Virus record (IMG/VR): IMGVR_UViG_3300029319_000019
Span: 1 to 64,000 of that record
Source of the DNA: a virus
Direction: 5' to 3' (one strand)
DNA length: 64,000 nucleotides
Part shown: one piece after another, positions 1,899-35,284 of the stretch
Position numbering within the stretch: the stretch's first letter is position 1
Layout of the letters: every line of letters begins with the position of its first letter
Made by a program: the position numbers and the translations under genes
Notes under the pieces: model-generated
The model's database searches: none
Told to the model about the DNA's origin: nothing
The model's input: only the letters and a program-made list of their open reading frames with translations

Positions 1899-4800
1899 TT
1901 ATTTATACGTACCTGATATGAAGTACTTAGCCGCATCTTCTGGGGAAGCTGATTTATTCAGACCTCGAAGAAGCGGTATTAAGTCTTCAAGATCTTTCTG
2001 TATCTTTCTATCACCCTTGTTATAGCGACCTGTCTTTCTTTGATAAAATATTTCTTTTTCATCTATTGGTATTCCAACATTGTACATAAACTCTAGACTT
2101 ATTTGGTCTATTAGTCCTTGTACTTTTTCTATCTGTCTAGCTGTTGCTGTTGGAGATTTAAGTATTCTTATTGCTTCTGCTGTACCATATAGTGGTAGCC
2201 ACTGCTGTACTTCAGCTCTATATCTTAATGCTTGATATAATAAGAAATTGGTTGCCCATGTTTTTTCATCATCATCTATATTGCTTAATGCTGCTATTAT
2301 TACACCGGCTACAGCTAAAGATGATAGATCAGTAACTGTACGTTTAACGTTTTGTTTTTCCATATCAGTTAACTTACCGTATACTTCTTGAGGCATTTCT
2401 TTTTCTCTGACACTTTCTCTTAGCATGTTCCAGAATGATATGTATGTACCTTGTGTAACTGCACCAAGTTCTTCGTCAACATGTATAGATGGTCCATTAA
2501 CACCTCCATGACCATAACGCTTTCTGATACCTGGGTTCATCCAGCTACGGAATAGCATAAATAATTTACCATACCATATTCTGTTTAGAGTTGGTCTGTC
2601 AAAACTACCTTTAGTCTGGTTAGTTCTTCTACTTAAACCTTGTATTAGATTTATAAAATCATATCTATTAAAGTTTGCAACTCTTGGATCTACAGACATC
2701 TTACCTTTTTTATCTATGAGTAATAAATCATATAGATTAGCAGGGTTACCGCTTTCATTCATTATTACATTACCATCCTTATCTTTTAACTTACCTTCTA
2801 AGTTCTTCATCAAAGCTAACATTCTTGTAGAAGATGCTTCATGCTCAGCTGCTTGCTGTACTACGAGTGCATTACCTAGCTGTAAAGCTTTACGTAAATT
2901 TCCTCCTACTAATCTATTACCTTCTTGATCTGTAAACTCAGTTAATGCATCAAAGAATTCTAATGCTTTACCTAACTTTGTTTCAGGCATAAATTTACCG
3001 GTATCAGTTAATCCTGCACCTTCCGCCCAATACTGTGACTTTGCCCAAGCTAAGTCTTTTATATTAAAAAATTGTCCCGCATTTGCTTCAGCTACAATAG
3101 CCATATTATCTATCAAACTCTGGTTAAAACCTTGTAAGAAGTTGAATGATAAAGTATTTATTGCAGTGAATGCATTGATTGCATCTACAGTTTTAGTTAG
3201 TGATATTCCTTTTAGGTTTTGTTTTAGTTGTATCTGCCCAAACATTATAGTATCTACAAAGTCATTTACATGTTTTAAAGTATAAGACTCGCCTGGTTTT
3301 TTTGCAGGTAGTTTGTATCCTAGTTTACTAGCTACTTGACTCAGGTATGCGACACCTTGACTATCAAGCTCCATGGTATCTCTGTTCTCTATGATGTTTC
3401 TGAATAACATCACGTGTCCATAGATTTCACTTTTTGCTTTGAAGTTGTGTGCCATATCTCTAAATAGATATAAACTGCTAGCTACATCTCTAGATACATC
3501 CTTAGATTCTATAGGCCTTGTATGATATACAGGCACTGATTTTTTTAACTCTCCTGTTTTTTCATTATATATACCAAACACTCTATCAGTTTCTTTTACT
3601 GTAAATCCTTCTGATAGCATATCTTTTGTAGCAGGTATAAATCCTTGTTCTTTTAATCTGTCGTAATCTCTTTTACGAACAGATGGTAGTAGATATGAAA
3701 ACTCATCCCAGGTATTTTTAGGCATACGCTTTTTACCTATCATTGCATGTGCTTCTCCAAAGCTTTTTAATGTAAAGTCATAAAACTTTTTAAGTCTTGC
3801 ATCGTTTTGTATCTTAACATACTTTGGATTTTCATATATAGATTGTTTTGGTTTAACTAAGTCTGCTCTTGGATTACCTGTTTCAGGGTTTAGTATACGT
3901 TTTAGAGTAGTTTCTGCATCGTTGTATTGTATTCTAGCTGCTTCTGCGGCCCCTACTTTACCTGCTTCGTATGCTTTTTCTTCTGTTTTTAAAGCATCTT
4001 TTTTTATCTTTTCATATCCAGCTATAATCTTTTCGTATCCTTCAATTGGTTCAGTGTTTTGCTCAAACCATTTATCTACTTCTTTATAATATGCGGTTCT
4101 ATTTTTAGCATTCTCTGTGCTAAAGGTCCAGTTCTTACGCTCCTGTTCATACTTTGCTTGTGATTTATAATCAGCTCTCATTGGCTTTTTATATTTCTTT
4201 CCAAGCTCCTTATACATTTCACGCTTATTGTTTTCGTACTTGTCTATATCTGTTGGTTGTACTAGTGATAGTACTTTAATTGTTTCTGTTTCTCCAAGAG
4301 AGTTTTGAGTTTGATAATCTACCTCTTCTACTATATCTTCATATAACTTTTCTACATCTTCTTCAGGCTGACCTTGCGCGAACTCTTGATATTGTTCATT
4401 TAGATCGCCTTTAAAATCAAGAGTCATATCATTCTTTTTGAATGTAGCTTCTTTTACAGACTTGGTAAACAATTGTATTGTTGCTTCTGATGAATACATT
4501 AAAGGATCAAAGTAGTAAGAGAATGCACTTTTATCTCTATGAGCTTCTGTCATTTCTCTTATCAAAGGTTCTCTACCAGTTAACTTTCTATTCTTGAAAC
4601 TTTGAACAGTCATTCGTTGTGCTTGCTTGTTAAAGTTTTCTTCAGTTATTACCCCTCTATCTCTTTTGTTTTTTAATTCTTTATATTCGTTAGCAAACTT
4701 TCCTTTTTCTATCTCACTTTCAAATCTTCTCCAACGCCCGTGCTCTTCAATGTTTTTTACAATAGCATCTAGTTGTGGATCTACTGCTTCATTGTGATAA

Positions 4801-5759
4801 CCAATTAATATATCAGCCATTATAGGGATTATCTCTTGTTCAAACTGGTTGTTCAATCTTTCAGCTGTAGATATTGTATCAGAAAGCATATCTAACATTA
4901 CATCTAATCTACCTACAGCACCTAACGCTTTTTGATCTAGCACTATTTGTTTTAGTTTTAATAGTGTATCTACAGCATCTAGTGATTCTTTTATGGCATA
5001 CATGTTATTTAGATTAACAAATGTAGCTTGTTCTTCCCTAGGCATGTTCATAATAGAATCAAACTCTAGCACTGCGTTATCTATATTATCTTTGTTCGCA
5101 ACTATAAACGTGTAGAAGTCATCTACTCTGTTGATTCTTTTTACAGCTGCTTGTAGTTGTAGTAATCTTTTTTCTTTTTTAGTTCTCTCTTCTTCTGGTA
5201 AGTTTTTTAAATCTTCTATCTCAGACTCTATGATAACTTTAGCATCTATTGCTAGCTTTTGCATTTCATCATAAGCCTGCGCATCTGTTCTATATGTTTT
5301 AGGTAATGGTTTTTGTTCTACCTCTTCTGTTAAACTTTGACCAACGTTATCATTAGCTCTTTGATTTAGTTTTTTATCTAACTCATACTGATTGCCATAC
5401 GTTATGTCTGCATTTCTATCTTTAACGGCGTCAGCAAAGTTTAGAATAAGATTGTTTACAGATATTTGATATAGGTTTGTATTCTTCTTTGTAGTGGGAT
5501 CTACAATACTTTCTACAAATGTAGATGTTAGTAGTCCAGGCAGCAAACTAGGGTTGTCTATGTATCCTAATTGAACTAGATCTTCCTGTGTTGCGTATAC
5601 TCCGTCTCTTCCTTGAACAGCTCTCACAGCTCCAGTCTCTTTTAGTATGTCTATTACTTTATCAACCTTTCTAGTTCCCGGATTAGAGTTATCAATGTAG
5701 TCAAACAATGTGGTTAACATTGTATTCTCTTCTTTATTTACAAATATCTTACAAGCCAT
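1899..5759 (-). CDS. Large virion cargo protein, third gene of the RNAP block
   Basis: Helical protein directly downstream of the vRNAP. Start placed at ATG 5759 (MACKIF, TAATG overlap with the upstream stop) rather than 5774. Confidence 0.75.
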   Translation of the reverse strand: MACKIFVNKEENTMLTTLFDYIDNSNPGTRKVDKVIDILKETGAVRAVQGRDGVYATQEDLVQLGYIDNPSLLPGLLTSTFVESIVDPTTKKNTNLYQISVNNLILNFADAVKDRNADITYGNQYELDKKLNQRANDNVGQSLTEEVEQKPLPKTYRTDAQAYDEMQKLAIDAKVIIESEIEDLKNLPEEERTKKEKRLLQLQAAVKRINRVDDFYTFIVANKDNIDNAVLEFDSIMNMPREEQATFVNLNNMYAIKESLDAVDTLLKLKQIVLDQKALGAVGRLDVMLDMLSDTISTAERLNNQFEQEIIPIMADILIGYHNEAVDPQLDAIVKNIEEHGRWRRFESEIEKGKFANEYKELKNKRDRGVITEENFNKQAQRMTVQSFKNRKLTGREPLIREMTEAHRDKSAFSYYFDPLMYSSEATIQLFTKSVKEATFKKNDMTLDFKGDLNEQYQEFAQGQPEEDVEKLYEDIVEEVDYQTQNSLGETETIKVLSLVQPTDIDKYENNKREMYKELGKKYKKPMRADYKSQAKYEQERKNWTFSTENAKNRTAYYKEVDKWFEQNTEPIEGYEKIIAGYEKIKKDALKTEEKAYEAGKVGAAEAARIQYNDAETTLKRILNPETGNPRADLVKPKQSIYENPKYVKIQNDARLKKFYDFTLKSFGEAHAMIGKKRMPKNTWDEFSYLLPSVRKRDYDRLKEQGFIPATKDMLSEGFTVKETDRVFGIYNEKTGELKKSVPVYHTRPIESKDVSRDVASSLYLFRDMAHNFKAKSEIYGHVMLFRNIIENRDTMELDSQGVAYLSQVASKLGYKLPAKKPGESYTLKHVNDFVDTIMFGQIQLKQNLKGISLTKTVDAINAFTAINTLSFNFLQGFNQSLIDNMAIVAEANAGQFFNIKDLAWAKSQYWAEGAGLTDTGKFMPETKLGKALEFFDALTEFTDQEGNRLVGGNLRKALQLGNALVVQQAAEHEASSTRMLALMKNLEGKLKDKDGNVIMNESGNPANLYDLLLIDKKGKMSVDPRVANFNRYDFINLIQGLSRRTNQTKGSFDRPTLNRIWYGKLFMLFRSWMNPGIRKRYGHGGVNGPSIHVDEELGAVTQGTYISFWNMLRESVREKEMPQEVYGKLTDMEKQNVKRTVTDLSSLAVAGVIIAALSNIDDDEKTWATNFLLYQALRYRAEVQQWLPLYGTAEAIRILKSPTATARQIEKVQGLIDQISLEFMYNVGIPIDEKEIFYQRKTGRYNKGDRKIQKDLEDLIPLLRGLNKSASPEDAAKYFISGTYK

Positions 5760-8700
5760 TATTTTATTGTACAAGCTTTTGTTATAACCACCTCTCTAGT
5801 TGTTGGTGCTGGTATTGTTATTTCTTTTATTTTTCTATCCATTATAGGGCTAGCTGTTGTTTCACCTGTCTTTTCTTTACGTAGAGCGCTTTGATCTTCA
5901 ACGTTTCCAACTTCATTTACTTGTCCTTTTATCCCTTTCTGTTGAAGTTTTGCATAAATATCTTCTCCTACCTTCACATATATCTCAGGTCCATCTATTC
6001 CAGTGTTACTTACAAAGTAGTCTGGTTTATTACCTTTTCGTGTAATTTTGTAGTTGTTATTTCTATCTCTAGCTACTGCCCTAGAAGATACTGTTGGTAA
6101 CATAAAATTTCCGCCAGGTGTGTGCGTTCCAAAGTTACGAATAAAATCGTGAATAAAGTCATCAAAGTATTCATTGTTGTAAGATTGGTTCTCAATACTA
6201 GAGAAGAACTGCACTGGAGATTGTTGCTCTTCATTTAATATGTTTGTAGTAAATGCTTCTGGTGGTATTATGTCCATGTAAGATCCTCTTCTAGGATGAA
6301 AGCCAGATGTCATTAACTGATTAGCTACTAGGTCCTGTGCAAACTCTTTTACTTCAGAGTCTTCACTAAGTAATAGTTGTCTAAAACTATCTACTAGGGC
6401 ATTCTTTTCTGTAGCATTTAGATTATAAGTTGTATTCAAGTCTATTGTAAATACTATGCTTTGTGTATTGTTTGTAGTGCTTGATTGTAATAGGTCAAAG
6501 AATATATTGTTTTGTACCTTACCACTCTTTCTTAAATTATACAATCTAGTTGCTATGTTATCGTTTGGATTTGTATACAGTTTTTTAAATCTTTCTATAG
6601 ATGTATAATCTTTCAAAGGATTGTTTACATCTTGACTAGTCACCATCTTTAAGAACAACGCTCTGTCTATAAACTTATGTGTAGCTGCATCAAATCTTTT
6701 CTTACCAGTTAAGAATTTTAGTTTTTCTTTGAAGTTGTAGAACGCTGCTCTATTGTTTATAAAGCCTGCTTGATCTCCAGCTTTGATAGTTTCATTTAGT
6801 ATGTTTCTATATGTAGCTTGTATGGGCGAAATAACTTCATCAAACTCTGCTATTGATAAGTCTCTATTTATAAATGTTTCTACTCCGGATATAGCATTTT
6901 CTTCTCTTAGCACCTCGTTTTCTTTTTCAATAAACTCTCTTACACCGGATATTTCATTAACATTATCAAGACCATCAGGATTCATAACTTGGAATGATCT
7001 ACTCAACTCTCTTCCAGTCTTTACTAGAATATTGAAATTGTTTAACATTTTTAATTGAGTTGTATCATCTTCTGTTCTACTGTCTAGTTCTTCCAATGTC
7101 ATATTTTGTACAGACTTTTCTAGATCTCTACTCATTCCATACTCTTTTCCTATCTCTTGTATAGATATAAATAGTTGGCTTGGATTGTAGCCATTAGCTC
7201 TAGCATGCTGTATTGTTTTTACAATAGATGGTTGTGTTAGAAACTTAACTACATACTCTACGGGCACACCAGTTGTAAGCATTAGTCCTGCCACAGGCAC
7301 TGTAAATATATTATCATTTATATCTATTTGTATAGGTTTGCTAGCTGCGTCAACAGAAGCAGATAAATATAAAGATAGAGTTGAGTTTACAAATTTATTA
7401 GAAGGAAGACCAGTAGAAAAATCATGAGCATATGTTTCACCTATATTTTGAAATTCTACACCTTCTATTATTGGGTATCTTTTAAATACATTTCCATTAA
7501 AATCTCCAAGATCTGGTATTCTAAGACTTCCCATTTGAGCAACGTTATGTCCTGATAACATATTAGCCCATAGTCCTATCAATGCATTACCGGCTTTGTT
7601 ACGCATTTCCATTTCAATCTCGTTTAGAGGATTGTTGTAGTCAATAGCTTTTGATAAACTTAACTCAGCTGCTAAGTTTTCTAGCTCTTTACCATCCAGT
7701 GGATCAAATACTTCTTGTAGATACGCAGGACTTGTAATAAGATCCATCATAGTATCATATATCTTTTGATCTCTCTTCTGTCTATCAGTTTCACTAGATG
7801 TTTCTTTTTGCATGACCATCATTTTATCTACGTCAAAGTCACTACCCATCTGTGTTGTTATACCTCCAGGCACTACAATAGCTTTTTCATGGGACTCAGG
7901 TAAAAACTGTACTACTTTTAATGGTAGCATAGAGTTCTTACCTTGGTTAGGTATACGGTATCCTATGACTTTTAGTCTTGAGTCATTTGGATCTACATCT
8001 GCTATGTTTGTACCAGGCTCAAACCCTAAATCACTAGCTCGCATTAACATCTCTGCATGCCACATACCGCCTTCTTCTACATACATTCTAAGTTCTTTTG
8101 TCTGTCCTTGGCTATCTATGTATCCACCAGGCTCTGCTATCTGAACTAGTTCTTTGCCTTTTATCTTTTGTGTGTATACGTTATTGTTAAACATGCTAAA
8201 GAACACTTGTTCAAACTTAGCCTGGTAGTTAGGAAATGCTAGAGGTATATCAAAGCGCAAATCGTTATCACCGTTAGGCACTATGTCTAATGCCCCCAAG
8301 TAGGAGTCAGGAAGTTTTTTATCTCTTAGCGTTCTTACTAGAGCGTCCCTTAGTTTTTCTAAGTATTTTCTTTTTGCATTTAGTCTCTGTTCAGTAGTCT
8401 TAGCATTGTTTAGTTCTGTTATTCCTAGCTCATCTTGTAATGCTTTTAGATCTTCATTTACATTTTCTGAAACTAGTTCGTGGAATGTATTATATAAAGG
8501 TTTGTCTTCAGGTCTTAGGTTAGCTAGTATGTTTTTACGAACCTGTCTTGCAAATACTATTTCAGGCTTTGCAACTCTTGATATAGTTTGTGGAAATCTT
8601 AAGTTTCTAGATTTCTTTTTTATTATAGAGTCTTTTATGTTAGATAGATCATCGTTATATAAATCTATAACAAGACCTGGTGTACCTTTTGTAGCTCCTT

Positions 8701-11700
8701 CTTCATTTGCAACGCCTATGTTGTTTTCTATCATTACTGTTCGCAGTCTGTCTGCTACTGGGTAGTTTGCTGTAAACTCTGAGGTTAATACTGTGTATGA
8801 GTTCTTATCCATATGTAATACAGGCACACCGTTCTGAACAGTTAGCTCTTCATGGTACGGTTTCTGTGGATATATAGGTCTAGGATTACCTTCGTTGTCT
8901 ACGTAACCTCTACCTGCCATCTCATTATCATATGCTTCTTGATCTTTTTCGGTCCACTGACCTTTACCTTGTTGTATGTCTCTATACATTGGAACAGTTA
9001 TATAAGCTTGCGCATCTGTTTTAACTGTAGACTGATAGTTCCTTGTTATCTCAGTAGCTTCATCTTGTTCTAATTGTCTAAGTCCCGCTTTATTACTTGT
9101 TAGAGCTGCATCTAAATCATCCACTACATCTCTAGCGCCAAACGGATCTTGAAAGTCTAGCTCTCTAAACGTTATAGCATTATACTCTTCAGGCATACCC
9201 CATGTAGGATCACCTTGTACATCTCCTTTTATAGATAGTTTATTTCCAGGCGTGGTTAGAAGACGCATTCTTTTGTAGAAGTCTGCAGGACTTTTAGCAA
9301 AACTATAGCCGCCACGTAAAAATTTATTTAGTTCTATTCTAGCATAGAAATCATTTAGTACAAAGTTTCTTATGTCTTCATCACTTCTAATACTTTCATG
9401 CAGCTCTGTTCTATCAAGCCCTATATTATTAGAATAGTCTAGCATTTCTTGTTGATACTCTCCTATTCTAGTAAATGTCTTATCTACTAATTCTTCTACC
9501 TTGTCATTTATAAGTTGATATTTTGGATTCTCAGGATGATACTGTTTCATAGATTGTATCAAAGATTTGAATCCTAGCTCTGTGCTTACATAATCATTTT
9601 GTAATGATAGTATTTGTGGGTTTTTAAACACAGGAGCGCCTAGCTTTGGATGTGTAAATAGATCGTCTAGTTTAATAACTAATGGGTTCTCTCCTTTTGG
9701 ATAGTGGTAGCCTTCTATTAGTTTACTTATATCTTTAGTTTCTTTAGCTTCAATGATTGCATCTTCAGCTGCCTGCATTACAGACAAGTCTTGTAGTATA
9801 AATCCTTTGATTACTTCTCTTGGACTTGTATCCTTTAACTTATTTATACGTTTTACTGGTAAGAATCCCAGCTGATCTCTATCTGCTTGTGTAGATACTG
9901 CAATATACATTACATCCTCAGTCCCATTATTAGCATAGAAGTTTAATCTAGCAGTCAAAGACTCTTTTTCATTCTGTACTTTGTAACCTCTACCTTCACT
10001 TTTATCTTTTGCTGTTTTAGATGCGTCATATATTTGATAGTCAAAGATGGCTCTAAAGTTATTATCTCTTAAACTATTCATCAAAACAGACTGTGCTTTG
10101 TAAAACAATGGGTGTGTTTCATCAAAAGGATTAAATAGTTTTGTTTTCTTTAATTCTTCCCTACGCTCATTAAAACCTCTTCTAATATCAGCACCTATGT
10201 CTTTTATTGGTGTAGATGTTTGTATTGGGTAAAATGTTTTACCGCCAGCACTAAGCATAGATATAGCTCTTTGTCTTTGGAACGTTGGGTATATCTTACC
10301 TAATACACGTATTGCGCCTCTATCAGATTCAAATATATCTCTACCTTGGCTTACAGATCTAGCAAGTATCTCCATACTGCGGTTTGGTATTTGAAATAAA
10401 ATATTATTTAACGCACCAGTGCCTTCATTTCTAAAATAGTTTTGTAAGTTTTCAAATGATTCTTCTTTTGAGTTTGCAAACTGTATAGATAAATTCCATA
10501 AAAACTCATTTAGATTTCTTACGTCGTTGTCTGAATGTATGTGTGCAGGATTACTAAAGTTTCTTTTTTCTTTTTGTAGCAGGGCCCAAGCTTTCATAGC
10601 TGCAGATTGCTTCTCTTTTATTATAGATACCGTACCATCTTCTTGCTCTTTGTATGCAGCTCTTTCATTAGGCATCAATAACTCTCTAGATTGTCTTGAC
10701 CACTCTGTAACAATAGTTGTTGCTAGGTTGTTTGAGTTAGATGGTAGTATTACTACATCTTTTTTAGTTACATCTTTTTCTTGTGTAGGATCAGGTTTTG
10801 TTTTTACAAACGTCTTAACCATACTAAACTTGTTGTATGTCTTAGAAAAGTTGTAATGAAAAGCTGCTTGTTGCTTAGGCGTTAGTGTCTTTAGTTTAGC
10901 TACTACAGGAACTAGATTCTTTTTATATTTAGACAGTCTAGTTATTTCTGCTAGCTGTTCTTTAAAACTTAGCTTATCAACTGAAGCCTCTGCTATATCT
11001 GGGTAGATCTCTTCTAAAGGTATTGCTGTTTGATAGTTTAGTTCGTTGTTCTCAGTTCTTCGTATGTCTAATAAGAATTCTTTTACTTCTGCAGACAGGT
11101 TTAGTACAGGGTTCTCTTCAAGTCTAGATATTTGATGAATCTTTACAGGCGTGTCATCAACCTCTAACAACTCTCCTTGATCGTCTTTTATTCTAATACC
11201 AAAACTTTCTAGCTCTTCTTTTATCTTAGTTCTCCATCCGCTTGTAGTTTCTGTATCACTCCAGTTTTTGTAAACACTTATCATTACAGTTCCTACTTTA
11301 TTTCTTCCTTCAACACTGTTAGGTATATCATCTTTAAACTGTACGCCTTCAGGCATAGCTGCTATCATGGCAGTCTTACCTTGTTTTATTCCTATGTTTA
11401 CTAACTCTACCGCTTTCTCTACAGACTCTTGTGTTGGAGCCCCAAACTCATTTGTTGGCCAACCGCTGAATGCTTCAGCTGCAACTCTATTTGCAATGAT
11501 ACCTTTGTCTGTTTTACTACCAGGGTTAAGTAGCTCTGATATTCTATCTTTAAATTCTTGTGGACTGTTTCTACGTATGTCATTAGCAAATGTAACGACA
11601 GTGTCTATAACTTGTTTTTGTCTTTCGTATCTTAAGTTACTATTTGTTTGTGCTTGTGTTAGTTTAGCTGGTATTATTATTCTTTGACCGCTAGTAGCTA

Positions 11701-11974
11701 CAATAAAGTAAACTCCATTGTCAGGGACTAGTATAGGTTCACCGTTGTCATCTGTAAATAGGAACGTACCTTCAAGAGCTTTTGCATCATTTTCAAAATC
11801 TATACCAAACGCTTGTTTAGTCGCAGGGCTGTATATTCTTTCATATAATACTTGTGCTTTTTCAGGGTGTCCTGATGCATCTAGTAAGTCTTTAAACAGT
11901 TGTGAGTCATTACCATTCTTAGCAATAGCACCTGTTATATCTCCTTTGTTATTTCTTTTATATCTACAAGCCAT
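5759..11974 (-). CDS. Virion-packaged single-chain two-barrel RNA polymerase (crAss-like, phi14:2 gp66 type)
   Basis: GYRIPNQG...GSDFDVDK catalytic loop (DFDVD at 7826-7840), upstream TDAQ and PQKP motifs, 2071 aa, gene context. Confidence 0.92.
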   Translation of the reverse strand: MACRYKRNNKGDITGAIAKNGNDSQLFKDLLDASGHPEKAQVLYERIYSPATKQAFGIDFENDAKALEGTFLFTDDNGEPILVPDNGVYFIVATSGQRIIIPAKLTQAQTNSNLRYERQKQVIDTVVTFANDIRRNSPQEFKDRISELLNPGSKTDKGIIANRVAAEAFSGWPTNEFGAPTQESVEKAVELVNIGIKQGKTAMIAAMPEGVQFKDDIPNSVEGRNKVGTVMISVYKNWSDTETTSGWRTKIKEELESFGIRIKDDQGELLEVDDTPVKIHQISRLEENPVLNLSAEVKEFLLDIRRTENNELNYQTAIPLEEIYPDIAEASVDKLSFKEQLAEITRLSKYKKNLVPVVAKLKTLTPKQQAAFHYNFSKTYNKFSMVKTFVKTKPDPTQEKDVTKKDVVILPSNSNNLATTIVTEWSRQSRELLMPNERAAYKEQEDGTVSIIKEKQSAAMKAWALLQKEKRNFSNPAHIHSDNDVRNLNEFLWNLSIQFANSKEESFENLQNYFRNEGTGALNNILFQIPNRSMEILARSVSQGRDIFESDRGAIRVLGKIYPTFQRQRAISMLSAGGKTFYPIQTSTPIKDIGADIRRGFNERREELKKTKLFNPFDETHPLFYKAQSVLMNSLRDNNFRAIFDYQIYDASKTAKDKSEGRGYKVQNEKESLTARLNFYANNGTEDVMYIAVSTQADRDQLGFLPVKRINKLKDTSPREVIKGFILQDLSVMQAAEDAIIEAKETKDISKLIEGYHYPKGENPLVIKLDDLFTHPKLGAPVFKNPQILSLQNDYVSTELGFKSLIQSMKQYHPENPKYQLINDKVEELVDKTFTRIGEYQQEMLDYSNNIGLDRTELHESIRSDEDIRNFVLNDFYARIELNKFLRGGYSFAKSPADFYKRMRLLTTPGNKLSIKGDVQGDPTWGMPEEYNAITFRELDFQDPFGARDVVDDLDAALTSNKAGLRQLEQDEATEITRNYQSTVKTDAQAYITVPMYRDIQQGKGQWTEKDQEAYDNEMAGRGYVDNEGNPRPIYPQKPYHEELTVQNGVPVLHMDKNSYTVLTSEFTANYPVADRLRTVMIENNIGVANEEGATKGTPGLVIDLYNDDLSNIKDSIIKKKSRNLRFPQTISRVAKPEIVFARQVRKNILANLRPEDKPLYNTFHELVSENVNEDLKALQDELGITELNNAKTTEQRLNAKRKYLEKLRDALVRTLRDKKLPDSYLGALDIVPNGDNDLRFDIPLAFPNYQAKFEQVFFSMFNNNVYTQKIKGKELVQIAEPGGYIDSQGQTKELRMYVEEGGMWHAEMLMRASDLGFEPGTNIADVDPNDSRLKVIGYRIPNQGKNSMLPLKVVQFLPESHEKAIVVPGGITTQMGSDFDVDKMMVMQKETSSETDRQKRDQKIYDTMMDLITSPAYLQEVFDPLDGKELENLAAELSLSKAIDYNNPLNEIEMEMRNKAGNALIGLWANMLSGHNVAQMGSLRIPDLGDFNGNVFKRYPIIEGVEFQNIGETYAHDFSTGLPSNKFVNSTLSLYLSASVDAASKPIQIDINDNIFTVPVAGLMLTTGVPVEYVVKFLTQPSIVKTIQHARANGYNPSQLFISIQEIGKEYGMSRDLEKSVQNMTLEELDSRTEDDTTQLKMLNNFNILVKTGRELSRSFQVMNPDGLDNVNEISGVREFIEKENEVLREENAISGVETFINRDLSIAEFDEVISPIQATYRNILNETIKAGDQAGFINNRAAFYNFKEKLKFLTGKKRFDAATHKFIDRALFLKMVTSQDVNNPLKDYTSIERFKKLYTNPNDNIATRLYNLRKSGKVQNNIFFDLLQSSTTNNTQSIVFTIDLNTTYNLNATEKNALVDSFRQLLLSEDSEVKEFAQDLVANQLMTSGFHPRRGSYMDIIPPEAFTTNILNEEQQSPVQFFSSIENQSYNNEYFDDFIHDFIRNFGTHTPGGNFMLPTVSSRAVARDRNNNYKITRKGNKPDYFVSNTGIDGPEIYVKVGEDIYAKLQQKGIKGQVNEVGNVEDQSALRKEKTGETTASPIMDRKIKEITIPAPTTREVVITKACTIK

Positions 11975-11979
11975 GTTTA

Positions 11980-14900
11980 TTATAGGTTACAGTCATTATC
12001 AAGTCTATTATCACCAAAGAATGGATTCTCAATCTCATCACCAATAACTTGGTCACCTGCTTGAGGTAGACTTATTGTGCCACCTTTTGCAAATTTAGTA
12101 TTTTGTGCAGCTTCCTGCATTGTTCCTCCTAATATATTTCCTCTTGTAAGTTCTATTATAGGATTGTGGAATAGAGATCCGTCTCTAGTACGTACTAAAT
12201 CCGTACGCAGTATGCCTAGTCTACCTCCTGTTTCTTGTGGTGAAAACAAATAGTCTTTGTAAGACGGGTATGAAACATTAGTTACTGGACTGGTGTATTG
12301 CCCAGGCGTGGTTGCTTCATTTTTATCAATGTTATATTTTTTATCTTTTAAGAAGTTTTCAAAGTTAGTTACAAAATCACTTTTTAGTTTATCAAACTTG
12401 CTTTTATCTGCAGCTTTTTCTATATACCTACCATCACTATTAAGTGTAACAAACTGTCCTGAGAATGGTTTACCTGATAATGCATTCTGTACTTGACTGC
12501 CATACATTCTTACTGTCTCACCTAGATTATTATCTCTATATACAAGATAAGGCTGACCATCACTAAACTCTCCAAACTCTAGGAACTCAGACTTACGGAA
12601 ATCATCTTTTCTTTCTGCTAAATCTCTAGTTGTGCTGTTTGCTACTATCTTTTTAGCTGTGTCAAAGTCTCCCTCTCTAAGCGCATCTAATACTCTTTGC
12701 TGTGCTTGTGGAGTTAGATCAGCTGTTGATGCGGTAGAGAATGTTGGCTGTCCTCCAGGCACCTGATTGCTAGGTATTAAGAATCCAACTTGTCCTGAGT
12801 TTAAACCTCTTCTATTTACATTACCTTCTACTTCATTAGCTAATGATGTTGGCTGTCCTTGTTCTGTAGTTACTAGCTGGCGTACTCCATTAGTTACAGT
12901 TTGGAATACAAGCTCTGGGTTACCACCAAACACTGATTGTGGATTACTAAAGAAGGGCGCTCCAGCCTCAGTTCTAGCATTGTTATAGTTTGGAGCATAT
13001 ACACGTTTAACTCCTAGCTGTACTTCTTGTCCTGCTCTTAGTTTATTTATTATATCTTGCCTATCTTTTAGTTTGGCCTCGGCATTTGCTCCTCTAGCAG
13101 CTGCAAGTTTACCTACGTACTTACCTTCTGAGTTTATTAAATATAGTGGTAAGTTTTCTGTATCCGCAAATCCTTCTTGTTCAACTATCTGAACTGTAAG
13201 CACGTCTCCTGGTTGTAGATTATTCTTAGCTTGTACGTCTATTAGCTCATCTACTACAGGCTCAAGCGGTACACCTGATTCATTAACTTGTATTCTAGTT
13301 CTATTAGCTACTTGATCTACTATCACGTTAGCTGACCCGGCCATCTTAAGTGATAACTCTTCTCCGTTTTCTTGTGGCGGTACACCTGCTGATATTTTTT
13401 GTTTCAGAGCTTCGCCTGTAGGATAATTTGCTTTTGTCCATAACTCAAGATGAGTCTTTAAATTAGCCTCAAAATTAGCTGGATCAAGTCCCATTTCTCG
13501 ATAATAAGCTCTATATCTTTCTGTCTCCTCTTCAATTTCCTGTAAAGTAGGTACTTGTTGTCTTAGTAATTCACCAAATGTAGGACCTTCTACACTTTGC
13601 GGAGGAGTAAGTTGTTCTGCTGGTCCTGCTGATTCTTGAGTAGCAGCATTGTCTTCTAACTGTGCAGATACTGCATCATCATTTACATTTGTATTTTCAT
13701 TAACTTCTTGACTTCCATAAATTCTATTAAATTGGTCTTTAGATAAAGCAGCTTTCATCTTTGGATTCATAACAGCATCAGGGCCTTCAGTTTGATCTGT
13801 TGTAACTATATCTCCATCTTTTTCAAATACCTCTAGTTCTTGTCTAGTAGATAGGTTATCTCTTTCAATAATACTTTTATCAGCTATTTTACCACTGCCA
13901 AAAGGTTGATAAACACCACCACTAAATATGTCCCATTCACGTGAGCCATCTAAACGTTTCGTTACTCTAAACTTTTTAACGTTTCCATCGCTATCTGTTA
14001 CAGTAAAGTATTCTCTTCCAATAGGAATTTGAGCATCTAAAAACCTTGGTTTTACTTGAGCATCCCCCTCTTCTTGAGCGCGGTTATCAATATTTTGATT
14101 TTTTCCTGCATTGACTTGTTCTTCAGTTGTTGCTGTAGTGCTGGGGGCAGGCTGTCCTGTAGAGTCTGTAGATCCCTTATTTTTGCCATCTTCTATTCTT
14201 TTTAATTGTTTTCTTTCTAAATGTATGAAAGCGTTGTTTCTTTCTATAGATCTTTGTTCTGCTGCTAGCTTATCTTGATAGTTTTTTAAATCTGTTTGAG
14301 CTGCGGCCAAGGCATCTGTGTCTCCTTCTTGCTGATATTTTTCTACCAGCTTATTAGTTTCTTCTATCTTCTCTTGTAGTTCTACTATATTATTTTCTGA
14401 TAGTGTTACTTCTCCTGTAAGTTTACTTACTTCTTGTAATACCTTACTTTCTAAGTTAGACAGCTGGTCAGATGTTAGACCTACACTTTCTCCACGAGCA
14501 CCAAGAACATTTTTAATCTTTGTTATTTGTGTTCTTATTTTCTTTGCTTCTTTTTTTAGACCTGCAACATCACCCTCAGTAAACAATTCTAACCGAACTT
14601 GTTGAGGCGTAGCATTGCTAGAGGCTATGTTTTGTGTAAGCTTATCTATAGATTCGTTAACTGTTTCTAGTAATTTATCTAGTTCGTATACTTTTTCTTT
14701 TAAGGATTGTGTATCAAGAGCGCCGTACTTTCCTTTATATGCTGCCTTTGTTCTAGCAAACACAATAGCAACCTTAAGCATTTCTATTTCAGTAGGATCA
14801 GTAATGTCTTGTTGCTTACCCATCTTCTCTGCATAAGCTCCTAGTATGGCAACTGCCATAGGTTCCACAGTATCTGCTTTTATTTCCTTTCTAGTATTAC

Positions 14901-17790
14901 CATTCTCATCTACAAATGTGATAGATATAGGTTTACCATTTTTATCAAATCCTATTGCATCTACAGGATTAGATTCTCTTATGAATACTTGTTGTCCATC
15001 GTAGTATATAGTTCTACCGCCGTTAACTGCTTCAAACTTACCAGTATTCTCTGCCTTGAACACTTCTTCAACTTCACCTTTCTTTTTATCAGTAACAGTA
15101 TCATTTTTATTTTCTTCAGGTAGTACTTCTAACTCTCCATTCTGCTCTCTTCTTTTTATACTTTCATAATGCTCTATAGCACGATTAAGACCAGCCTTCG
15201 CTGTAGGAGCTAAGTCTTTTTTAGATATTTGTTTTAGATTATCTAACTTCTCTTGTACAGTATTACCATCAATCTTTACATATTTTTTGTATGCATCTTG
15301 TTCTTGCTTTTCTAACTCATCATATTTCTTTTGAGCTAAAGCCTTGTCTTCTTTGCTAGCATCTTTAAATAACTCATCAAGTTCTTCTGTTGTCTTAGCT
15401 TTTTCTGTTCCCTCTCTGTACTCTTTTTGACGCTCTTGATTTTTTATTATCTCTTCTTGAGTTTTCCTTTCTTGTTGAAACTGTTCTTGAGCTGCTGCAC
15501 TAGATGACAATTTATTGTATACATCTACTGCTCTTGTTACATCAAATGAAATATCTGAGTAATCTTGTGCTAGTTCTTTTAGTTGCATAGCAGCTATAGG
15601 ATCTATTTTACCTAGCTCTACTATAGCTTCATTTAATTTCTTTATCATTTTGGTACGAGCATCTTCAGCATCGTAGCCCTCTTCTGCAGTTCCTGGATCT
15701 GTTTTGTATAGTGAAAACTCAGATAATACTTGGTTCATGTCTAAAGAACCTTCCATCATTTTGTTATTACTTCTTAGAGAGTTATCTATTACAGCTTGCA
15801 TTTGTTTTTGTATTTTGCCTAGTCTGTCAGTTTTATCTTTTACAGAACTGCCTCTTAGTATAAGCTCTCTTCTCAGTGCTAGTTGATTATCATACACATT
15901 TTGCTGTGCAGTTCTAGTTGCTGCATCTTGTAGTAGTCTTGGTAAACCTTTAGCTGGCTCTTGTATGGGCATTGAGTTAGATACATTGTCATACATAGTT
16001 TTAAATCCATTTATTTTAGATTTAAGACTATCTACTATTTGATTTTTATCCTTAATCATTCCAGTAGAGTCAATAGTTTTTCCTTTTGAGTCTGTAAGCT
16101 CTTGTAACGGATTACCATTTTCATCTGTATAACCAAATCGTTTAGCAAAATCAAGGTCTGATAATTGTTTTGTATTTTCTAACTGCTCCATAAACACATC
16201 AAATGTTCCAGTTTCCAGTGCATGTAGAGCGTTAAATTGTATTAATTGAAATTGTAGATCTTTGAATAACTTTTTGTCTCCGTCTTGTAATGCTTTATGC
16301 ATTCTTTTTACTACATCAGTTTGTGCTTGTATATTAAGAAGAGAGTTTTTTGCATTATCTAAGAAGCCTCCATTTCTAACATCAGCTATTGTTTGAGCCA
16401 TGTGCTTTCTATTAGAATATTCTTTAGACATGGCCATGCCACCGCCTCTCATTAAAGCTCCTACTAAAAATCCAACAAGCATAGACTCTTGACCTTCTCG
16501 TGACCCAAATGTTTCGGAGAAGCCTTTATTTAAGGCCTTAATCATATCTCCATATCCTCCATTCTTATATCTATCAGAGTGATATGTAGATGAAAAAGTA
16601 CTAGATGCAAACTGAAATCCTTCCTGGAATGCTTCCGTAATACCAGCTCTACCCATGTCTGTAGCTTTACGTAATGTGCCTTTCCAAAAGCCATCATTAG
16701 CAAATTTACTTACAGCTTTTTTAGATGCTGCATCAAATATAACATCCGTGTTTACTTTAGTAGCTGTGTTAAAGCCCATCATTTGTTTACCAAACATTAT
16801 AAAGTTTGTTCCCGCAAGAACGGGTAGCTGTGATATAAAGTTTGTATTACCTGCAGCATAAGACGTATCTTCTATATCTTTTAATACATCTGCTGGTATT
16901 TGTGATAAATTGTCAACACCATCAGTTCTTTCAATATAAGCTTTTGTAAGATCGTCAAAGGTGCTTCTTTGAGTTTCCCTAGCTTCTACAGATGCTTCTG
17001 CCATAGACATCATTAACGCTCCATCTACAGAACTCAAGAATGTTTTATATGCACCCGCAGTGCCTTTCATTCCCTTAAGATTATTAGCTAATTTTGTTCC
17101 GTTTGTAACAGCTGTCACTGCCCTATTTAAAGATTTTAATTTGTTTGCACCTGCTAATGCTCTTATTCCTTTATCAGCTATTCCTACTGCTCCAAGTCCT
17201 CCTGTCAAATACATGGTAGCAATAGATCCAAGAGAATAACCTATACCGTTTGCAAAAGTATCAGCCCAAAAGTTAGCTGTGCCTAACCTTCTAAACCCAC
17301 TCATGTTCTGCTCTTCTCTTGTGAGATAGTTAGGCATGTTCTCACGCATCCAATCGTTAGTCTTATCTACAGTTCTACCTATAAAGTTATCATAATATGC
17401 ACCTCCGCTAAACACTTCGCCTAACCCAAACATTACACCCAAAGTGTTTTCAGCTACAGCTCCAAGTGTAGTAACACCTGCCTTAGCTAAACCATTACCC
17501 CACTGATCAGCTGTAGATTGATTTCTAGCACGAATCTCTTCCCAGTCTAATAATTGTCCTCTAGGCACATTGTACTTAGCAAACTTATCAAGATCTCTTG
17601 TACCTAGATAGTCTGTTCTAAACAACAGCCCTTGATCGTAACCAGGATTACCTAAATTTATCTGTGGTGTAGGGGCTTGCAACGCCTTACCAGTTATAGG
17701 ATTTATTGGAGTTTCCACTCCTGTAGTAGTGCTAGTAGTTGGCTGACCGCCTACTGGTAGTCCTGTTATTGGATTAATAGTTTCTGACAT
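11980..17790 (-). CDS. Large virion cargo/ejection protein, first gene of the RNAP block
   Basis: 1936 aa; N-terminal Gly/Ala-rich hydrophobic segments, long coiled coils; position upstream of vRNAP. Confidence 0.75.
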   Translation of the reverse strand: MSETINPITGLPVGGQPTTSTTTGVETPINPITGKALQAPTPQINLGNPGYDQGLLFRTDYLGTRDLDKFAKYNVPRGQLLDWEEIRARNQSTADQWGNGLAKAGVTTLGAVAENTLGVMFGLGEVFSGGAYYDNFIGRTVDKTNDWMRENMPNYLTREEQNMSGFRRLGTANFWADTFANGIGYSLGSIATMYLTGGLGAVGIADKGIRALAGANKLKSLNRAVTAVTNGTKLANNLKGMKGTAGAYKTFLSSVDGALMMSMAEASVEARETQRSTFDDLTKAYIERTDGVDNLSQIPADVLKDIEDTSYAAGNTNFISQLPVLAGTNFIMFGKQMMGFNTATKVNTDVIFDAASKKAVSKFANDGFWKGTLRKATDMGRAGITEAFQEGFQFASSTFSSTYHSDRYKNGGYGDMIKALNKGFSETFGSREGQESMLVGFLVGALMRGGGMAMSKEYSNRKHMAQTIADVRNGGFLDNAKNSLLNIQAQTDVVKRMHKALQDGDKKLFKDLQFQLIQFNALHALETGTFDVFMEQLENTKQLSDLDFAKRFGYTDENGNPLQELTDSKGKTIDSTGMIKDKNQIVDSLKSKINGFKTMYDNVSNSMPIQEPAKGLPRLLQDAATRTAQQNVYDNQLALRRELILRGSSVKDKTDRLGKIQKQMQAVIDNSLRSNNKMMEGSLDMNQVLSEFSLYKTDPGTAEEGYDAEDARTKMIKKLNEAIVELGKIDPIAAMQLKELAQDYSDISFDVTRAVDVYNKLSSSAAAQEQFQQERKTQEEIIKNQERQKEYREGTEKAKTTEELDELFKDASKEDKALAQKKYDELEKQEQDAYKKYVKIDGNTVQEKLDNLKQISKKDLAPTAKAGLNRAIEHYESIKRREQNGELEVLPEENKNDTVTDKKKGEVEEVFKAENTGKFEAVNGGRTIYYDGQQVFIRESNPVDAIGFDKNGKPISITFVDENGNTRKEIKADTVEPMAVAILGAYAEKMGKQQDITDPTEIEMLKVAIVFARTKAAYKGKYGALDTQSLKEKVYELDKLLETVNESIDKLTQNIASSNATPQQVRLELFTEGDVAGLKKEAKKIRTQITKIKNVLGARGESVGLTSDQLSNLESKVLQEVSKLTGEVTLSENNIVELQEKIEETNKLVEKYQQEGDTDALAAAQTDLKNYQDKLAAEQRSIERNNAFIHLERKQLKRIEDGKNKGSTDSTGQPAPSTTATTEEQVNAGKNQNIDNRAQEEGDAQVKPRFLDAQIPIGREYFTVTDSDGNVKKFRVTKRLDGSREWDIFSGGVYQPFGSGKIADKSIIERDNLSTRQELEVFEKDGDIVTTDQTEGPDAVMNPKMKAALSKDQFNRIYGSQEVNENTNVNDDAVSAQLEDNAATQESAGPAEQLTPPQSVEGPTFGELLRQQVPTLQEIEEETERYRAYYREMGLDPANFEANLKTHLELWTKANYPTGEALKQKISAGVPPQENGEELSLKMAGSANVIVDQVANRTRIQVNESGVPLEPVVDELIDVQAKNNLQPGDVLTVQIVEQEGFADTENLPLYLINSEGKYVGKLAAARGANAEAKLKDRQDIINKLRAGQEVQLGVKRVYAPNYNNARTEAGAPFFSNPQSVFGGNPELVFQTVTNGVRQLVTTEQGQPTSLANEVEGNVNRRGLNSGQVGFLIPSNQVPGGQPTFSTASTADLTPQAQQRVLDALREGDFDTAKKIVANSTTRDLAERKDDFRKSEFLEFGEFSDGQPYLVYRDNNLGETVRMYGSQVQNALSGKPFSGQFVTLNSDGRYIEKAADKSKFDKLKSDFVTNFENFLKDKKYNIDKNEATTPGQYTSPVTNVSYPSYKDYLFSPQETGGRLGILRTDLVRTRDGSLFHNPIIELTRGNILGGTMQEAAQNTKFAKGGTISLPQAGDQVIGDEIENPFFGDNRLDNDCNL

Positions 17791-20186
17791 TACAGTTTAG
17801 TTCTAATTTCGTATCCTAGCTTTGCAGCATCATTTACAAATGTAACAAACTCTGGGCTATCTACTCTGTAAGTTACATCTCTACCTTTAGTTGGGTCAAA
17901 CAATGTTACCTTATCTGATGCACCTGAGAATGAGAAAGTAGCTGAACCTGTTTCTTCACCATCTGGTCCGTATATTGCCATGTCTGCACTAGGAGCACCT
18001 GTATGTTTATGTAAGTTCATCTCCATCTGTAGTAGGTATCCAGGAGAGTTAAAGTATTGATCCATTTGTTTGTTTCTAATATTACTATATGGTAATATTA
18101 TTTCCTTACTTACATTTTTATTATTCTTATCCTTACCAACTACTGTTAGTTGTAATGTAGGCTCACCAAATGCTGGAGTAGTATGGAATAATACATTTTT
18201 AACTTGAATCTCTTCACTACTCCATCCTAAATCTTTAACCATTTCAGCTACAGTTCCAATCCCTCTTTGCTGTTTACCGTCCCAATAGATATTAAATGTT
18301 TTATCTAGTGGCGTAGACTTAAAGAATTCTTTTACATACTTAGTGTTTTTTGTAACATCTTGAGGAGTCATGCCTGGCATGTTGTTAGATGCAAAGGTAC
18401 CTTTAGTTAATGTAGAATTTTCCTCTAACCATCTATCTATCTCTTTCTTGTCTGCCTTTCCTGCATCTGTTAAAGCATTTAAAGATCTTAAAACCGCAAA
18501 AGAATCAGACTTATCTCCAAACATATTTTGTACAGCTAAAGCTCTTTTATATCTATTATGATCAGGATGGCTAGGATCTTGTAATATTCTAGGATCAATC
18601 TTAGTAGAAGTTCTAAAAGGATTAACTGTTTCAAAGAAAGATTCTTCTCCATATATGTCACCTATATCATCTCTGATATTAATAAGATCTATTAGAGTTA
18701 GGCTAGGATCGTTAAGAACTTGTCTAGCTCTATCTAATAATTCCTGACCTGTGTACTTTCCAAATTCTTGATTAAGTTTAGACTCATCAGTTATGCCAGT
18801 TGCTTCGTAAGCTCTCCTCAATCTCTCCTGTTGTATAACGACTTGTTTTTTAATAGTCATTACTTTATATCTCATTTCTTGGAATACAGCATTATCTTTT
18901 AACTCTTCAGGTACGTTATTAGATATAATATCCTGCTCAGTAAGTTTTCTACCATCAGTTAAAAATGGAGCAGCTAAAGAGTTAACATCTTGTACAGTTT
19001 TAGTTACTGTATTAAGGTTTAAATCAATATTAGCTCCAATCTCTGCAGACGTTCTACCACCTATATCATCAAGCTGATTAACTTCTGTAAGTTTAAGTAC
19101 ATTTGGAGTGCTATTTTCTAGTTCAAAATTATAATCAGCTGTCCATTTTGCTGAATATTCAACAGCGCTGTTCTGATCTACATTCTTAAACACAAACTTG
19201 TCATAAGATGTTTGTAGCTCTCTATTAATGTCTTGTTGTATTACAGAGTTTTTAAGATAAGTTCTACGCTGTGCAGTAAGATCTTCTCCACTGCCTGTAT
19301 CATTTAATAATCTTTCTTGTTCTTTTATTATATTATCAAGTCTTTGTGCTTCTTTATCGTTACCAGAATCAATTGCCTCTTGTCTTTGTTCTATTAGACC
19401 TTTAGAGTCTGGATTGTCTTCATCACCATATAATGTAGTAGATATTCTAGATCGTATCTCTTCATCACTCAAGTGGAATGTTCTTAGTTCTCCTTTTTGT
19501 TGAAATGCTGCTGCAACATCAGGGTCTTGCATTATGTTGTTAAATACACTAGCAACTCTTTCGGGACTAATCTCTTCAACATCAATACCATTAGTAACAT
19601 AGAAGTTACCATCTTTACTGATTACTTTACCTTCGTTACCATACTTTCTTACCGCAACATCTTTCATTTGCTCTGACATCATTGCTTGAATGTCAACATC
19701 GTCAACCACATTAAACCCAGAGAAGAAAGAACTTTGATCTATTGTACCATCTTCATTTTTTTGTAGTCCTGAGTATTCATGTCTAGATCTCTGCAAGGCA
19801 AGAGCTCTTGTTTCAGAGTCTATTCTCTTATCGTCATATAGCTTATTAAGATTCTCTCTATATGCATTGTATGCTTCATAGTTCTTTTTAATAGGCTGAT
19901 ATTGCTGATCAAAGACTCTAGCACTTTTAGCTACATCCATCATCATAGTTTCATAATCACCACGGCCCGCCCTGTCCATTAGTTGTTGTCTAGTACTTTG
20001 CTCTAACTGATTCTTAAGATCTTGGTCGCCTGCAAAATCTGCAGCTTGCATTTGATCTACAGCTCCTGCTAATGCATCATCAGCATTGAATGCTTGTTGA
20101 AACCTTTGTCTTTGTAGCGCATTTATCTGTACAGATCCTGGATCTCTATAAACACTTTGGTAGGGTTTTAAACTATATCTACTCAT
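17790..20186 (-). CDS. Putative internal virion (cargo) protein
   Basis: 798 aa, Cys-free, helical, coupled to both neighbours by 1-nt overlaps within the cargo block. Confidence 0.65.
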   Translation of the reverse strand: MSRYSLKPYQSVYRDPGSVQINALQRQRFQQAFNADDALAGAVDQMQAADFAGDQDLKNQLEQSTRQQLMDRAGRGDYETMMMDVAKSARVFDQQYQPIKKNYEAYNAYRENLNKLYDDKRIDSETRALALQRSRHEYSGLQKNEDGTIDQSSFFSGFNVVDDVDIQAMMSEQMKDVAVRKYGNEGKVISKDGNFYVTNGIDVEEISPERVASVFNNIMQDPDVAAAFQQKGELRTFHLSDEEIRSRISTTLYGDEDNPDSKGLIEQRQEAIDSGNDKEAQRLDNIIKEQERLLNDTGSGEDLTAQRRTYLKNSVIQQDINRELQTSYDKFVFKNVDQNSAVEYSAKWTADYNFELENSTPNVLKLTEVNQLDDIGGRTSAEIGANIDLNLNTVTKTVQDVNSLAAPFLTDGRKLTEQDIISNNVPEELKDNAVFQEMRYKVMTIKKQVVIQQERLRRAYEATGITDESKLNQEFGKYTGQELLDRARQVLNDPSLTLIDLINIRDDIGDIYGEESFFETVNPFRTSTKIDPRILQDPSHPDHNRYKRALAVQNMFGDKSDSFAVLRSLNALTDAGKADKKEIDRWLEENSTLTKGTFASNNMPGMTPQDVTKNTKYVKEFFKSTPLDKTFNIYWDGKQQRGIGTVAEMVKDLGWSSEEIQVKNVLFHTTPAFGEPTLQLTVVGKDKNNKNVSKEIILPYSNIRNKQMDQYFNSPGYLLQMEMNLHKHTGAPSADMAIYGPDGEETGSATFSFSGASDKVTLFDPTKGRDVTYRVDSPEFVTFVNDAAKLGYEIRTKL

Positions 20187-23100: not shown

Positions 23101-23350
23101 CTTGGTAGTAACCCATACGTCTCATGAATTCTTTATTACTACTTTTAGGGTAACCGCCTTCTTGCATAGTATCAGCTAGTTTACCAATCTTTTTAGATTG
23201 TGCTGCATGTAGCTTAGATGCCTTAGCTAACTGCTTAGATACTTTACTAAGAGTTTTTGACTTTCCACCTTTTAACATTCTCTTAGGCTTCTTGCCAGCT
23301 TTCTTCATTGATATTGCTATTGCTGCTTGTTGCGCTCTTGATTTTGCCAT
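20186..23350 (-). CDS. Putative cargo/ejection protein with glycine-zipper membrane segment and repeated xxGG motifs
   Basis: 1054 aa directly after the muzzle gene; GLGTGAGIGGMIGG...LIGGIIGAGVSGIGG segment; GRSHEQGGI...EVEGGET module; many YQxGG-like motifs. Confidence 0.7.
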   Translation of the reverse strand: MAKSRAQQAAIAISMKKAGKKPKRMLKGGKSKTLSKVSKQLAKASKLHAAQSKKIGKLADTMQEGGYPKSSNKEFMRRMGYYQAGGLQQAPMYGANTLPGVPETSSITYQEADPAKLKAIEEDLKAAQESTKYQDEAQQEIAKQEARMQTVQGIGEQVLDLADKSKKFKVDPKTGEKIKDEAGNFMPVGVASTADPSLIKTGADLYGKGVSESMGLASAPKGVQFAVNPATGAELSILPGAEVPAGFEVMGVSGGSKLSTGLSKVAAGAKQSIANLGSATAGTGAAKAGEFLTGSITGGTSTAASMLNPALVASLAGMGVKKLADDDDATTMNVGETTGSLLQGLGTGAGIGGMIGGPAAPVTALIGGIIGAGVSGIGGLVKRGKARKEMAKAERKKRGEIAKVLQRQKMESLKAREYSGFDFGKDVARYGGYYQTGGAPGVLQNMPRPNIPMPPSQRIIKQIKPSAVDNIVSGVSNVVEKMGLKKAAKKGLLMGSKLLRVGAASAAPLLKTVSLVNPMQDASDMPALYGTGAAGDPTSMDKYFNKVYQRGGVKLPGGKMKPIPGSDAVEFKGRSHEQGGIMLDPMTEVEGGETMDKVTMKKGGVGDYFFSQHLKMGGKSFAQRHKDILKNGGRQKDIDALAKLQEKKAGRNPNVVKLGAGGYYQLGGVDPLGNVIMSDLNMDGIDDFSQGINLYNPISGIDKMSEELNLLGPSGAVPPASKEEEKKVKKEEKKEKEGQEEGQELFYPGIDPNKYTLSENVVPNPFDDLVEINVDPNQGVQSALNLQNQINEQLSEEDQALIDKAKSNVELTEQEQKALKRLNRNVPGLAIAAGVTQLLPAAYSFFKKDKPVEQMGAPGRIKAPALDRVNFNAERAANAADNRAINRFIETSGIGPAGIIAKMSAYRRKQEGDMKIAAQESRINTQIANREAQMQMQARTQNIQNALRVNQINTAAREAERIAQSNRRLGAVDTFAQGIAGLAGDAMSYQASERLARATGDMGIYERDRLRNFLRNQINPRTGQPYTNADIAELFNKRFAKPTATKEDDKKEDK

Positions 23351-34817: not shown

Positions 34818-35284
34818 TAATCAAAATCAATATATTCTATTGTTACTTCTTCTCCATTAGCTATTGCCTTTGCAATAGACGGATAAATCCTTTTATAAGC
34901 GTTAACGCTTTTACCAACAAACCCGTCAGGTAGTAGTTGGTTATTTTCCTGTGCATCGCCAACGATAAGACACCCAGCAGTGTGCTCGTCAGTGTTTCCA
35001 GTATGAATAAGAATATACTCAAAGTTAGGAACATCAGTGACATGCAACATACCACGGTGTATACCAGGATATTTTTTAGTATATCTTTCATGAAATCCAC
35101 CTTCTTTTCTTAATTCTATTTTATATGTGCCTGCAGGTACTCTAGTTTCACCTCTAACTTTTAAAGCTCTACGCTCGTCTTCAAGTGTGTAACAGAGAAA
35201 TTTATTACCCATATCACCCTCTTCAAATAATAAACCTGAAGTTGAGTCTGCTTCTGAGCTAAATCTTAATACTTTTAGTTTCAT
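34817..35284 (-). CDS. DUF5675-family protein, putative L,D-transpeptidase-fold endolysin
   Basis: CYTLED, ETRVPAGTY and ILIHTGNT..HTAGCLIVG (His/Cys) motifs. Confidence 0.8.
   Translation of the reverse strand: MKLKVLRFSSEADSTSGLLFEEGDMGNKFLCYTLEDERRALKVRGETRVPAGTYKIELRKEGGFHERYTKKYPGIHRGMLHVTDVPNFEYILIHTGNTDEHTAGCLIVGDAQENNQLLPDGFVGKSVNAYKRIYPSIAKAIANGEEVTIEYIDFD

Follow-up and report, generated by a model that had tools for sequence, protein, structure and literature searches.

Comparison of the cargo genes of crAss-like viruses indicates that three consecutive proteins of one such virus, designated C, B and A, are probably joined head to tail by inter-chain disulfides, formed between cysteines that face each other at the gene breaks and taking the place of the missing peptide bond. 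In this proposal C, B and A would be three pieces of a cysteine-free polyprotein of about 5300-5700 aa, which is encoded whole elsewhere. At each break an upstream cysteine, 1-10 residues from the C-terminus, would bond with a downstream cysteine at position 3-6, so that a linear N-to-C covalent thread, C-S-S-B-S-S-A, would be restored in the oxidised virion, and the pieces would behave inside the particle as the undivided polyprotein does elsewhere.

The window, the 64,000-nt stretch of DNA analysed here, is part of an 80,339-bp crAss-like virus record. Its minus strand carries a crassvirus structural module, in which the portal (55354-57609), the major capsid protein (51471-52919), ring proteins, including ring 1 (49354-50517 and 28515-29471), and a muzzle protein of 1720 aa with 7 Cys (23353-28515; phrog_15100, weak match to crAss_MUZ_C) were recognised. 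The muzzle gene marks the start of the cargo block and is followed on the same strand by five large genes encoding proteins E (20186-23350; 1054 aa), D (17790-20186; 798 aa), C (11980-17790; 1936 aa), B, the putative virion RNA polymerase (vRNAP; 5759-11974; 2071 aa), and A (1899-5759; 1286 aa), whose ATG at 5759 overlaps the stop codon of B as TAATG. Protein C is a homologue of phi14:2 gp67 and crAss001 gp47, and protein A of phi14:2 gp65 and crAss001 gp49. The only PHROGs match of C was phrog_32390, whose function is not known, and no Pfam domain was found in it; Pfam and PHROGs named no domain in A or B. The canonical HExxH motif, expected from the zincin-like domain reported in gp65 orthologues, is absent from the A protein of the window, and no near relative turned up among 50,697 phage records searched with the block by megablast.

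The polymerase was recognised from several features. By tblastn, B was matched to phi14:2 g066 and crAss001 gp50, and its residues 821-1427 match the phi14:2 gp66 structure (PDB 6VR4; 6vr4_A, E 7.8e-23). It contains a DFDxD motif at residues 1379-1383, in which D1379, D1381 and D1383 are invariant in an alignment of 25 sequences; an ORF bearing this motif was present in 79 loci. Its gene belongs to the cargo block that follows the muzzle gene in the crassvirus structural module. Judged by the DFDxD motif, the similarity to gp66 and the gene position, B is assigned to the Crassvirales vRNAP family. By analogy with phi14:2 and crAss001, whose gp67-gp66-gp65 and gp47/gp50/gp49, respectively, were all detected in virions by mass spectrometry (PMC10172136), B would be packaged in the virion and ejected.

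Proteins C, B and A together contain four cysteines in 5293 residues, all of them no more than 4 residues from the two facing junctions. The sole cysteine of C is Cys1934, third from the end (DNDCNL*; TGT at 11989-11991). The only two in B are Cys3 (MAC; 11966-11968) and the fourth-last residue, Cys2068 (KACTIK*; 5771-5773), and the sole one in A is Cys3 (MAC; 5751-5753), all on the minus strand. This pattern had been described in an earlier note on the window, and translation of the minus-strand ORFs reproduced each of its codons and positions, as well as the absence of cysteine from the outer ends of the trio and from the 798-aa and 1054-aa proteins, D and E. The observation on the four cysteines is confirmed. 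Counterparts of D and E in related loci likewise have no cysteine; D is outside the proposed covalent chain, of which C is the first link and A the last.

Cysteine accounts for 1.52% of the residues encoded by the 31 other genes on the minus strand of the window. About 109 cysteines are expected in the five cargo proteins (7145 aa), against 4 found and none internal (Poisson P ~3e-41), and under uniform placement all four would lie no more than 4 residues from the four facing termini with a probability of ~8e-11. These two values, for depletion and for terminal placement, exclude chance.

The same positions are conserved in distant homologues. In the 37 vRNAP homologues, whose identity goes down to ~23%, a cysteine lies no more than 7 residues from the C-terminus in 36 and at position 3-5 in 29, and for 27 these two terminal cysteines are the only ones in about 2000-3200 residues. 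In the 25-sequence alignment, with a mean identity of 21%, Cys2068 stands beside the catalytic aspartates as one of 28 invariant columns. All 12 homologues of C have a single cysteine, 2-3 residues from the end. In homologues of A, a cysteine is located at position 3-6 in 17 of 19, being the sole one in 16 of those, and C3 is invariant in the alignment of 17 sequences; of the two exceptions, one has a start called too far downstream and the other is a longer form.

The cultured phages have homologous cargo with the same terminal-cysteine pattern, phi14:2 with the gene order of the window and crAss001 with the first gene on the other strand. In phi14:2, gp67 (1797 aa) ends in its sole cysteine, the only ones in gp66 are Cys3 and Cys-2, and Cys3 is the sole one of gp65. 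In crAss001, gp50 has Cys5 and Cys-9 plus one internal cysteine, gp49 only Cys5, and gp47 a single cysteine, third from the end (within 2334 residues read); the gp47 gene is convergent, on the opposite strand, and its C-terminal cysteine is nevertheless kept. Disulfides have been reported in the tail and in gp57 of crAss001 virions, and the cargo proteins are thought to cross the tail partially unfolded (PMC10172136). Cargo-protein cysteines are mentioned neither in that work nor in the phi14:2 polymerase preprint.

In order to follow gene breaks across the order, a census was made by an IMG/VR profile scan and covered 80 loci of at least 495 relatives, several on partial contigs, which were dereplicated into 56 lineages. 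Architecture was assigned by homology to C- and A-type pieces (blastp) and by the DFDxD motif, without use of cysteines. Gene calls took simply the first ATG, with the start in locus L060 and a frameshift in L009 corrected by eye, and state changes were placed on a FastTree topology of the polymerase core. The block occurs in three main forms, C|B|A, C-B|A and C-B-A as one ORF, with breaks at other points in L046, L055, L064 and L081, each with its own cysteine pair.

Cysteines were present on both sides at 64 of 64 gene breaks within the block in the 56 lineages, at N-terminal positions 3-6 and at 1-10 residues from the C-terminal end, with one case at 24. None was present at the true outer ends, neither at the 32 first N-termini nor at the 51 last C-termini; the apparent outer-end exceptions in L081 and L011 are not first pieces. 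The C-B fusions, of 3500-4950 aa, keep the C-terminal cysteine alone, and eight complete single-ORF C-B-A polyproteins of 4730-5711 aa (L018, L021, L025, L027, L028, L029, L035 and L066; L027 being a near-copy of L021, which leaves seven distinct fusions) have no cysteine at all. On the vRNAP tree at least 13 state changes were counted, at least 9 at C|B and at least 4 at B|A. All phylogenetically independent contrasts agreed with the pattern, 8 of 8 for C|B and 4 of 4 for B|A, and simple arithmetic on these counts gives a sign test of ~5e-4 for 12 of 12. The expectation of the earlier note, that terminal cysteines would occur only at facing junctions and be gone upon fusion, met with no exception among these breaks and fusions. 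As judged from these gene sequences, terminal-cysteine pairing at gene breaks is an order-wide rule. Pairwise local alignments of split with fused relatives did not extend across the junctions, since the flanking sequences have diverged too far.

Internal cysteines are rare, with a frequency of 0.026% over 280,732 aa in the 56 lineages. They do occur in some gut lineages: locus L082 (5987-18403) has 21 in the vRNAP and 5 in A, with the shared-junction cysteines kept, and loci sharing one IMG sample-number prefix with crAss001-like loci have 1-8. Since they number up to 26, as in L082, purging of the interior is not absolute and seems to be relaxed in some lineages.

One locus shows a gene that was cut by homing endonucleases. 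In L033, two homing-endonuclease genes of the GIY-YIG type (Pfam; 7625-8293 and 9314-9949) break up the last cargo gene; the contig ends inside the second of them, and two pieces of the cargo gene are complete. One, of 92 aa (7356-7634), can be aligned to the N-terminal ~80 residues of longer A-type proteins from relatives. The other, of 345 aa (8283-9320), contains an ART-PolyVal domain and weak GNAT matches, and aligns with internal cysteine-free stretches of relatives. Each has two cysteines only, one per end. Because the homologous stretches are internal and free of cysteine, the new ends in L033 have gained new cysteines. A screen of 1021 ORFs of at least 80 aa from the window and the crAss-like loci showed that the coding-strand ORFs below 1500 aa with cysteines at both ends and none inside are these two pieces and a middle piece of 1167 aa in L046.

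In T4-like phages, the nrd and topoisomerase genes are split by free-standing homing endonuclease genes, and the pieces reassemble non-covalently. The L033 arrangement resembles these splits in that GIY-YIG genes lie between the pieces of a formerly continuous gene, but differs from them in having a cysteine at each new end instead of non-covalent reassembly.

A structural precedent for the proposed link is found in the Anabaena phage A-4L (A4), where a disulfide between gp27 Cys1715 and gp26 Cys5 of the virion has been observed by cryo-EM (PNAS 2025, PMC12002296). The A-4L genome (KF356198) encodes a gp27 of 1717 aa, whose sole cysteine is Cys1715, and a gp26 of 1114 aa, whose sole cysteine is Cys5. 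As in the crAss block, these are products of consecutive large ejection-protein genes, with the C-end cysteine of the upstream protein facing the N-end cysteine of the downstream one, and the crAss block, judged by sequence, shows the same signature, a near-sole C-end cysteine facing an N-end cysteine at position 3-6. Unlike the crAss block, A4 has one such junction only, located in a folded pentameric pre-ejectosome, and the bond was treated as a stabilising contact, not as a gene-break rule or a substitute for a peptide bond (PMC12002296). Searches with A4 gp26 and gp27 by phmmer found nothing among the window proteins at E<=10, nor among 165 block proteins at E<=0.01. With no similarity detectable, A4 is an analogue and a structural precedent, not a relative.

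The depletion of internal cysteine also has a published counterpart. The ejection proteins of Schitoviridae (N4 gp50 vRNAP; DEV gp71, gp72 and gp73) have almost no cysteine, for which passage through the oxidising periplasm was the proposed reason in N4-like phages (PMC11445570). Like the crAss block, they are giant, packaged, ejected and cysteine-poor proteins that include a vRNAP, and the cysteine frequency of the window cargo is likewise far below the proteome background. Terminal cysteine pairs have not been reported in Schitoviridae, however, and their vRNAP is one polypeptide, whereas in crAss-like viruses the suppression coexists with strictly placed junction cysteines.

Several other explanations of the facing cysteines were weighed against the disulfide. 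The two might bridge the chains through a bound metal ion, in the manner of a zinc clasp; cysteine is a common metal ligand, such a clasp would be able to arise under the reducing conditions of the cytoplasm while the particle is assembled, and the strict coupling to gene breaks fits any tether. This is improbable, however, as there are only two cysteines per junction, also in the two-piece systems, there is no conserved His, Asp or Glu nearby, the positions and neighbouring residues vary, and the one solved case of this signature, that of A4, is a disulfide. Other pairings of the same cysteines, namely an intrachain N-to-C bond in B together with a C-to-A bond, dimers of one protein joined at identical ends, or B polymerised head to tail with C and A as caps, are slightly less probable again. 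Partners in the three-piece form, where B is tagged at both ends, are not assignable from sequence alone, but in the two-piece forms head-to-tail is the sole possible hetero-pair, rings or dimers give no reason for the loss of cysteines on fusion or their gain at every new break, and ring closure would oppose passage through the tail.

About equally improbable is that the cysteines are tags for another process acting on separately translated pieces, such as a packaging signal, processing, or transient thioester formation or acylation, with no link between the chains. In its favour, 58 of the 64 residues at position 2 are small ones (A, S, G, T or P), which suggests removal of Met and an exposed N-terminal tail. 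However, no fixed distance or motif surrounds the cysteine, and the first piece never has an N-terminal cysteine nor the last piece a C-terminal one, a polarity that a per-protein tag would not show. Hardly credible is the view that the cysteine codons result incidentally from a nucleotide signal at the junctions (translational coupling or a promoter) or from stop-codon drift. B and A do begin with an identical 10-mer, ATGGCTTGTA, found nowhere else in the window, but this amounts to M-A-C in preferred codons plus one base, TGT and TGC are both used, the spacers range from -4 to >40 nt, and the cysteine positions vary. Moreover, gp47-type homologues keep the C-terminal cysteine although their gene is convergent and not upstream of the vRNAP gene, and this retention on the other strand removes the nucleotide-signal explanation.

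ATGGCTTGTA was rejected as a nucleotide motif on these grounds. It lies in the contexts 5750-5776 and 11965-11974 of the window, where no wider nucleotide motif was found; GCTTGTA also encodes the A-C of KACTIK in B, 17 nt upstream of the start of A. A split intein with trans-splicing was rejected as well, the cysteine positions being variable (3-6 at the N-end, 1-10 at the C-end) and never residue 1, and Pfam finding no Hint domain, nor any domain in C, B and A.

The head-to-tail disulfide remains the preferred reading. Of what the earlier note had proposed, covalent chaining end to end in gene order is strongly favoured, since the comparative test had no exception and a disulfide of the same signature is known in A4; that the link is a disulfide, that it forms in the particle and is reduced in the cytoplasm, and that the pieces travel as one thread is what we infer from these data. 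With the cysteines at the extreme ends, each bond would leave a stub of only a few residues, and the joined thread, being effectively linear, could still go through the narrow tail in a partially unfolded state. The interior would have been emptied of cysteine, as in other ejected phage proteins, and loops and wrong pairings would be avoided. The pieces would travel as one thread, and reduction of the link in the host cytoplasm would release the polymerase. Points against a disulfide are that the cytoplasm is reducing at the time of assembly and that gut phages live anaerobically.

A broader joint reading, which is plausible but held with less than even confidence, is that terminal cysteine pairs serve the ejection cargo of phages in general as a modular 'covalent splice'. 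Wherever the polyprotein is broken, by homing endonucleases too, an end-to-end disulfide would heal it post-translationally, and effector modules flanked by terminal cysteines, such as the 345-aa ART/GNAT-like link of L033, could be plugged into the thread. The whole thread would be pulled through the tail N-to-C and would fall apart by cytoplasmic reduction, and the device would have arisen independently in crassviruses and in the cyanopodophage A4.

If the proposed thread exists, the most abundant phages of the human gut would deliver their RNA-polymerase block not as three proteins but as a single covalent chain, which would fix order and 1:1:1 stoichiometry. It would explain how genes can be freely fused, variably split, moved between strands and cut by endonucleases without loss of function. 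The link would also provide a redox switch for release or activation of the polymerase in the host. In the phi14:2 polymerase preprint, the fused polyproteins were assumed to be 'likely cleaved', and this assumption of cleavage before packaging would have to be revised. Literature searches for a cysteine rule in Crassvirales found no description of one. The earlier note knew of no description, which for Crassvirales agrees with these searches, but the analogous A4 link and the cysteine suppression in N4-like phages are both published (PMC12002296, PMC11445570); the proposed thread would link these two separate observations, cysteine-free ejected proteins and the single A4 disulfide.

Some other features of the loci were observed. 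An N-terminal motif, C-P-N-x-N-x-x-[EK]-[WF], begins the vRNAP piece of L011, L013, L014 and L023 and is found at the N-end of the last piece in L030, L043, L053 and L065; a related form, C-I-N-x-[NS], occurs in L046, L050, L055, L064 and L033. The recurring motif begins different pieces in different lineages, as if it were a small domain marking a favoured break point. In the crAss001-like Steigviridae (L042, L056, L074 and L080), the C-terminal cysteine of the vRNAP lies 6-10 residues from the end, deeper in than in most other lineages, and within a conserved I-C-G motif. In L030, the fused C-B gene is separated from the A gene by a gene for a 163-aa ferritin-like protein with 5 Cys (L030:14288-14779; Pfam Ferritin, E 3.8e-15). 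The frameshift in L009 is apparent near the 3' end of the vRNAP gene (L009:15346-15975), with the true C-terminal 209 aa (...KKC) in another frame, and represents either an error of sequencing or a genuine break.

The structural module of the window also encodes three proteins very rich in cysteine, in sharp contrast to the cysteine-free cargo block of the same module. They comprise 800 aa with 47 Cys (35281-37683), 1464 aa with 55 Cys and a weak SprB-repeat match (42840-47234), and 178 aa with 12 Cys and a C-terminal HCGCNC (47237-47773), and may be tail or fibre parts.
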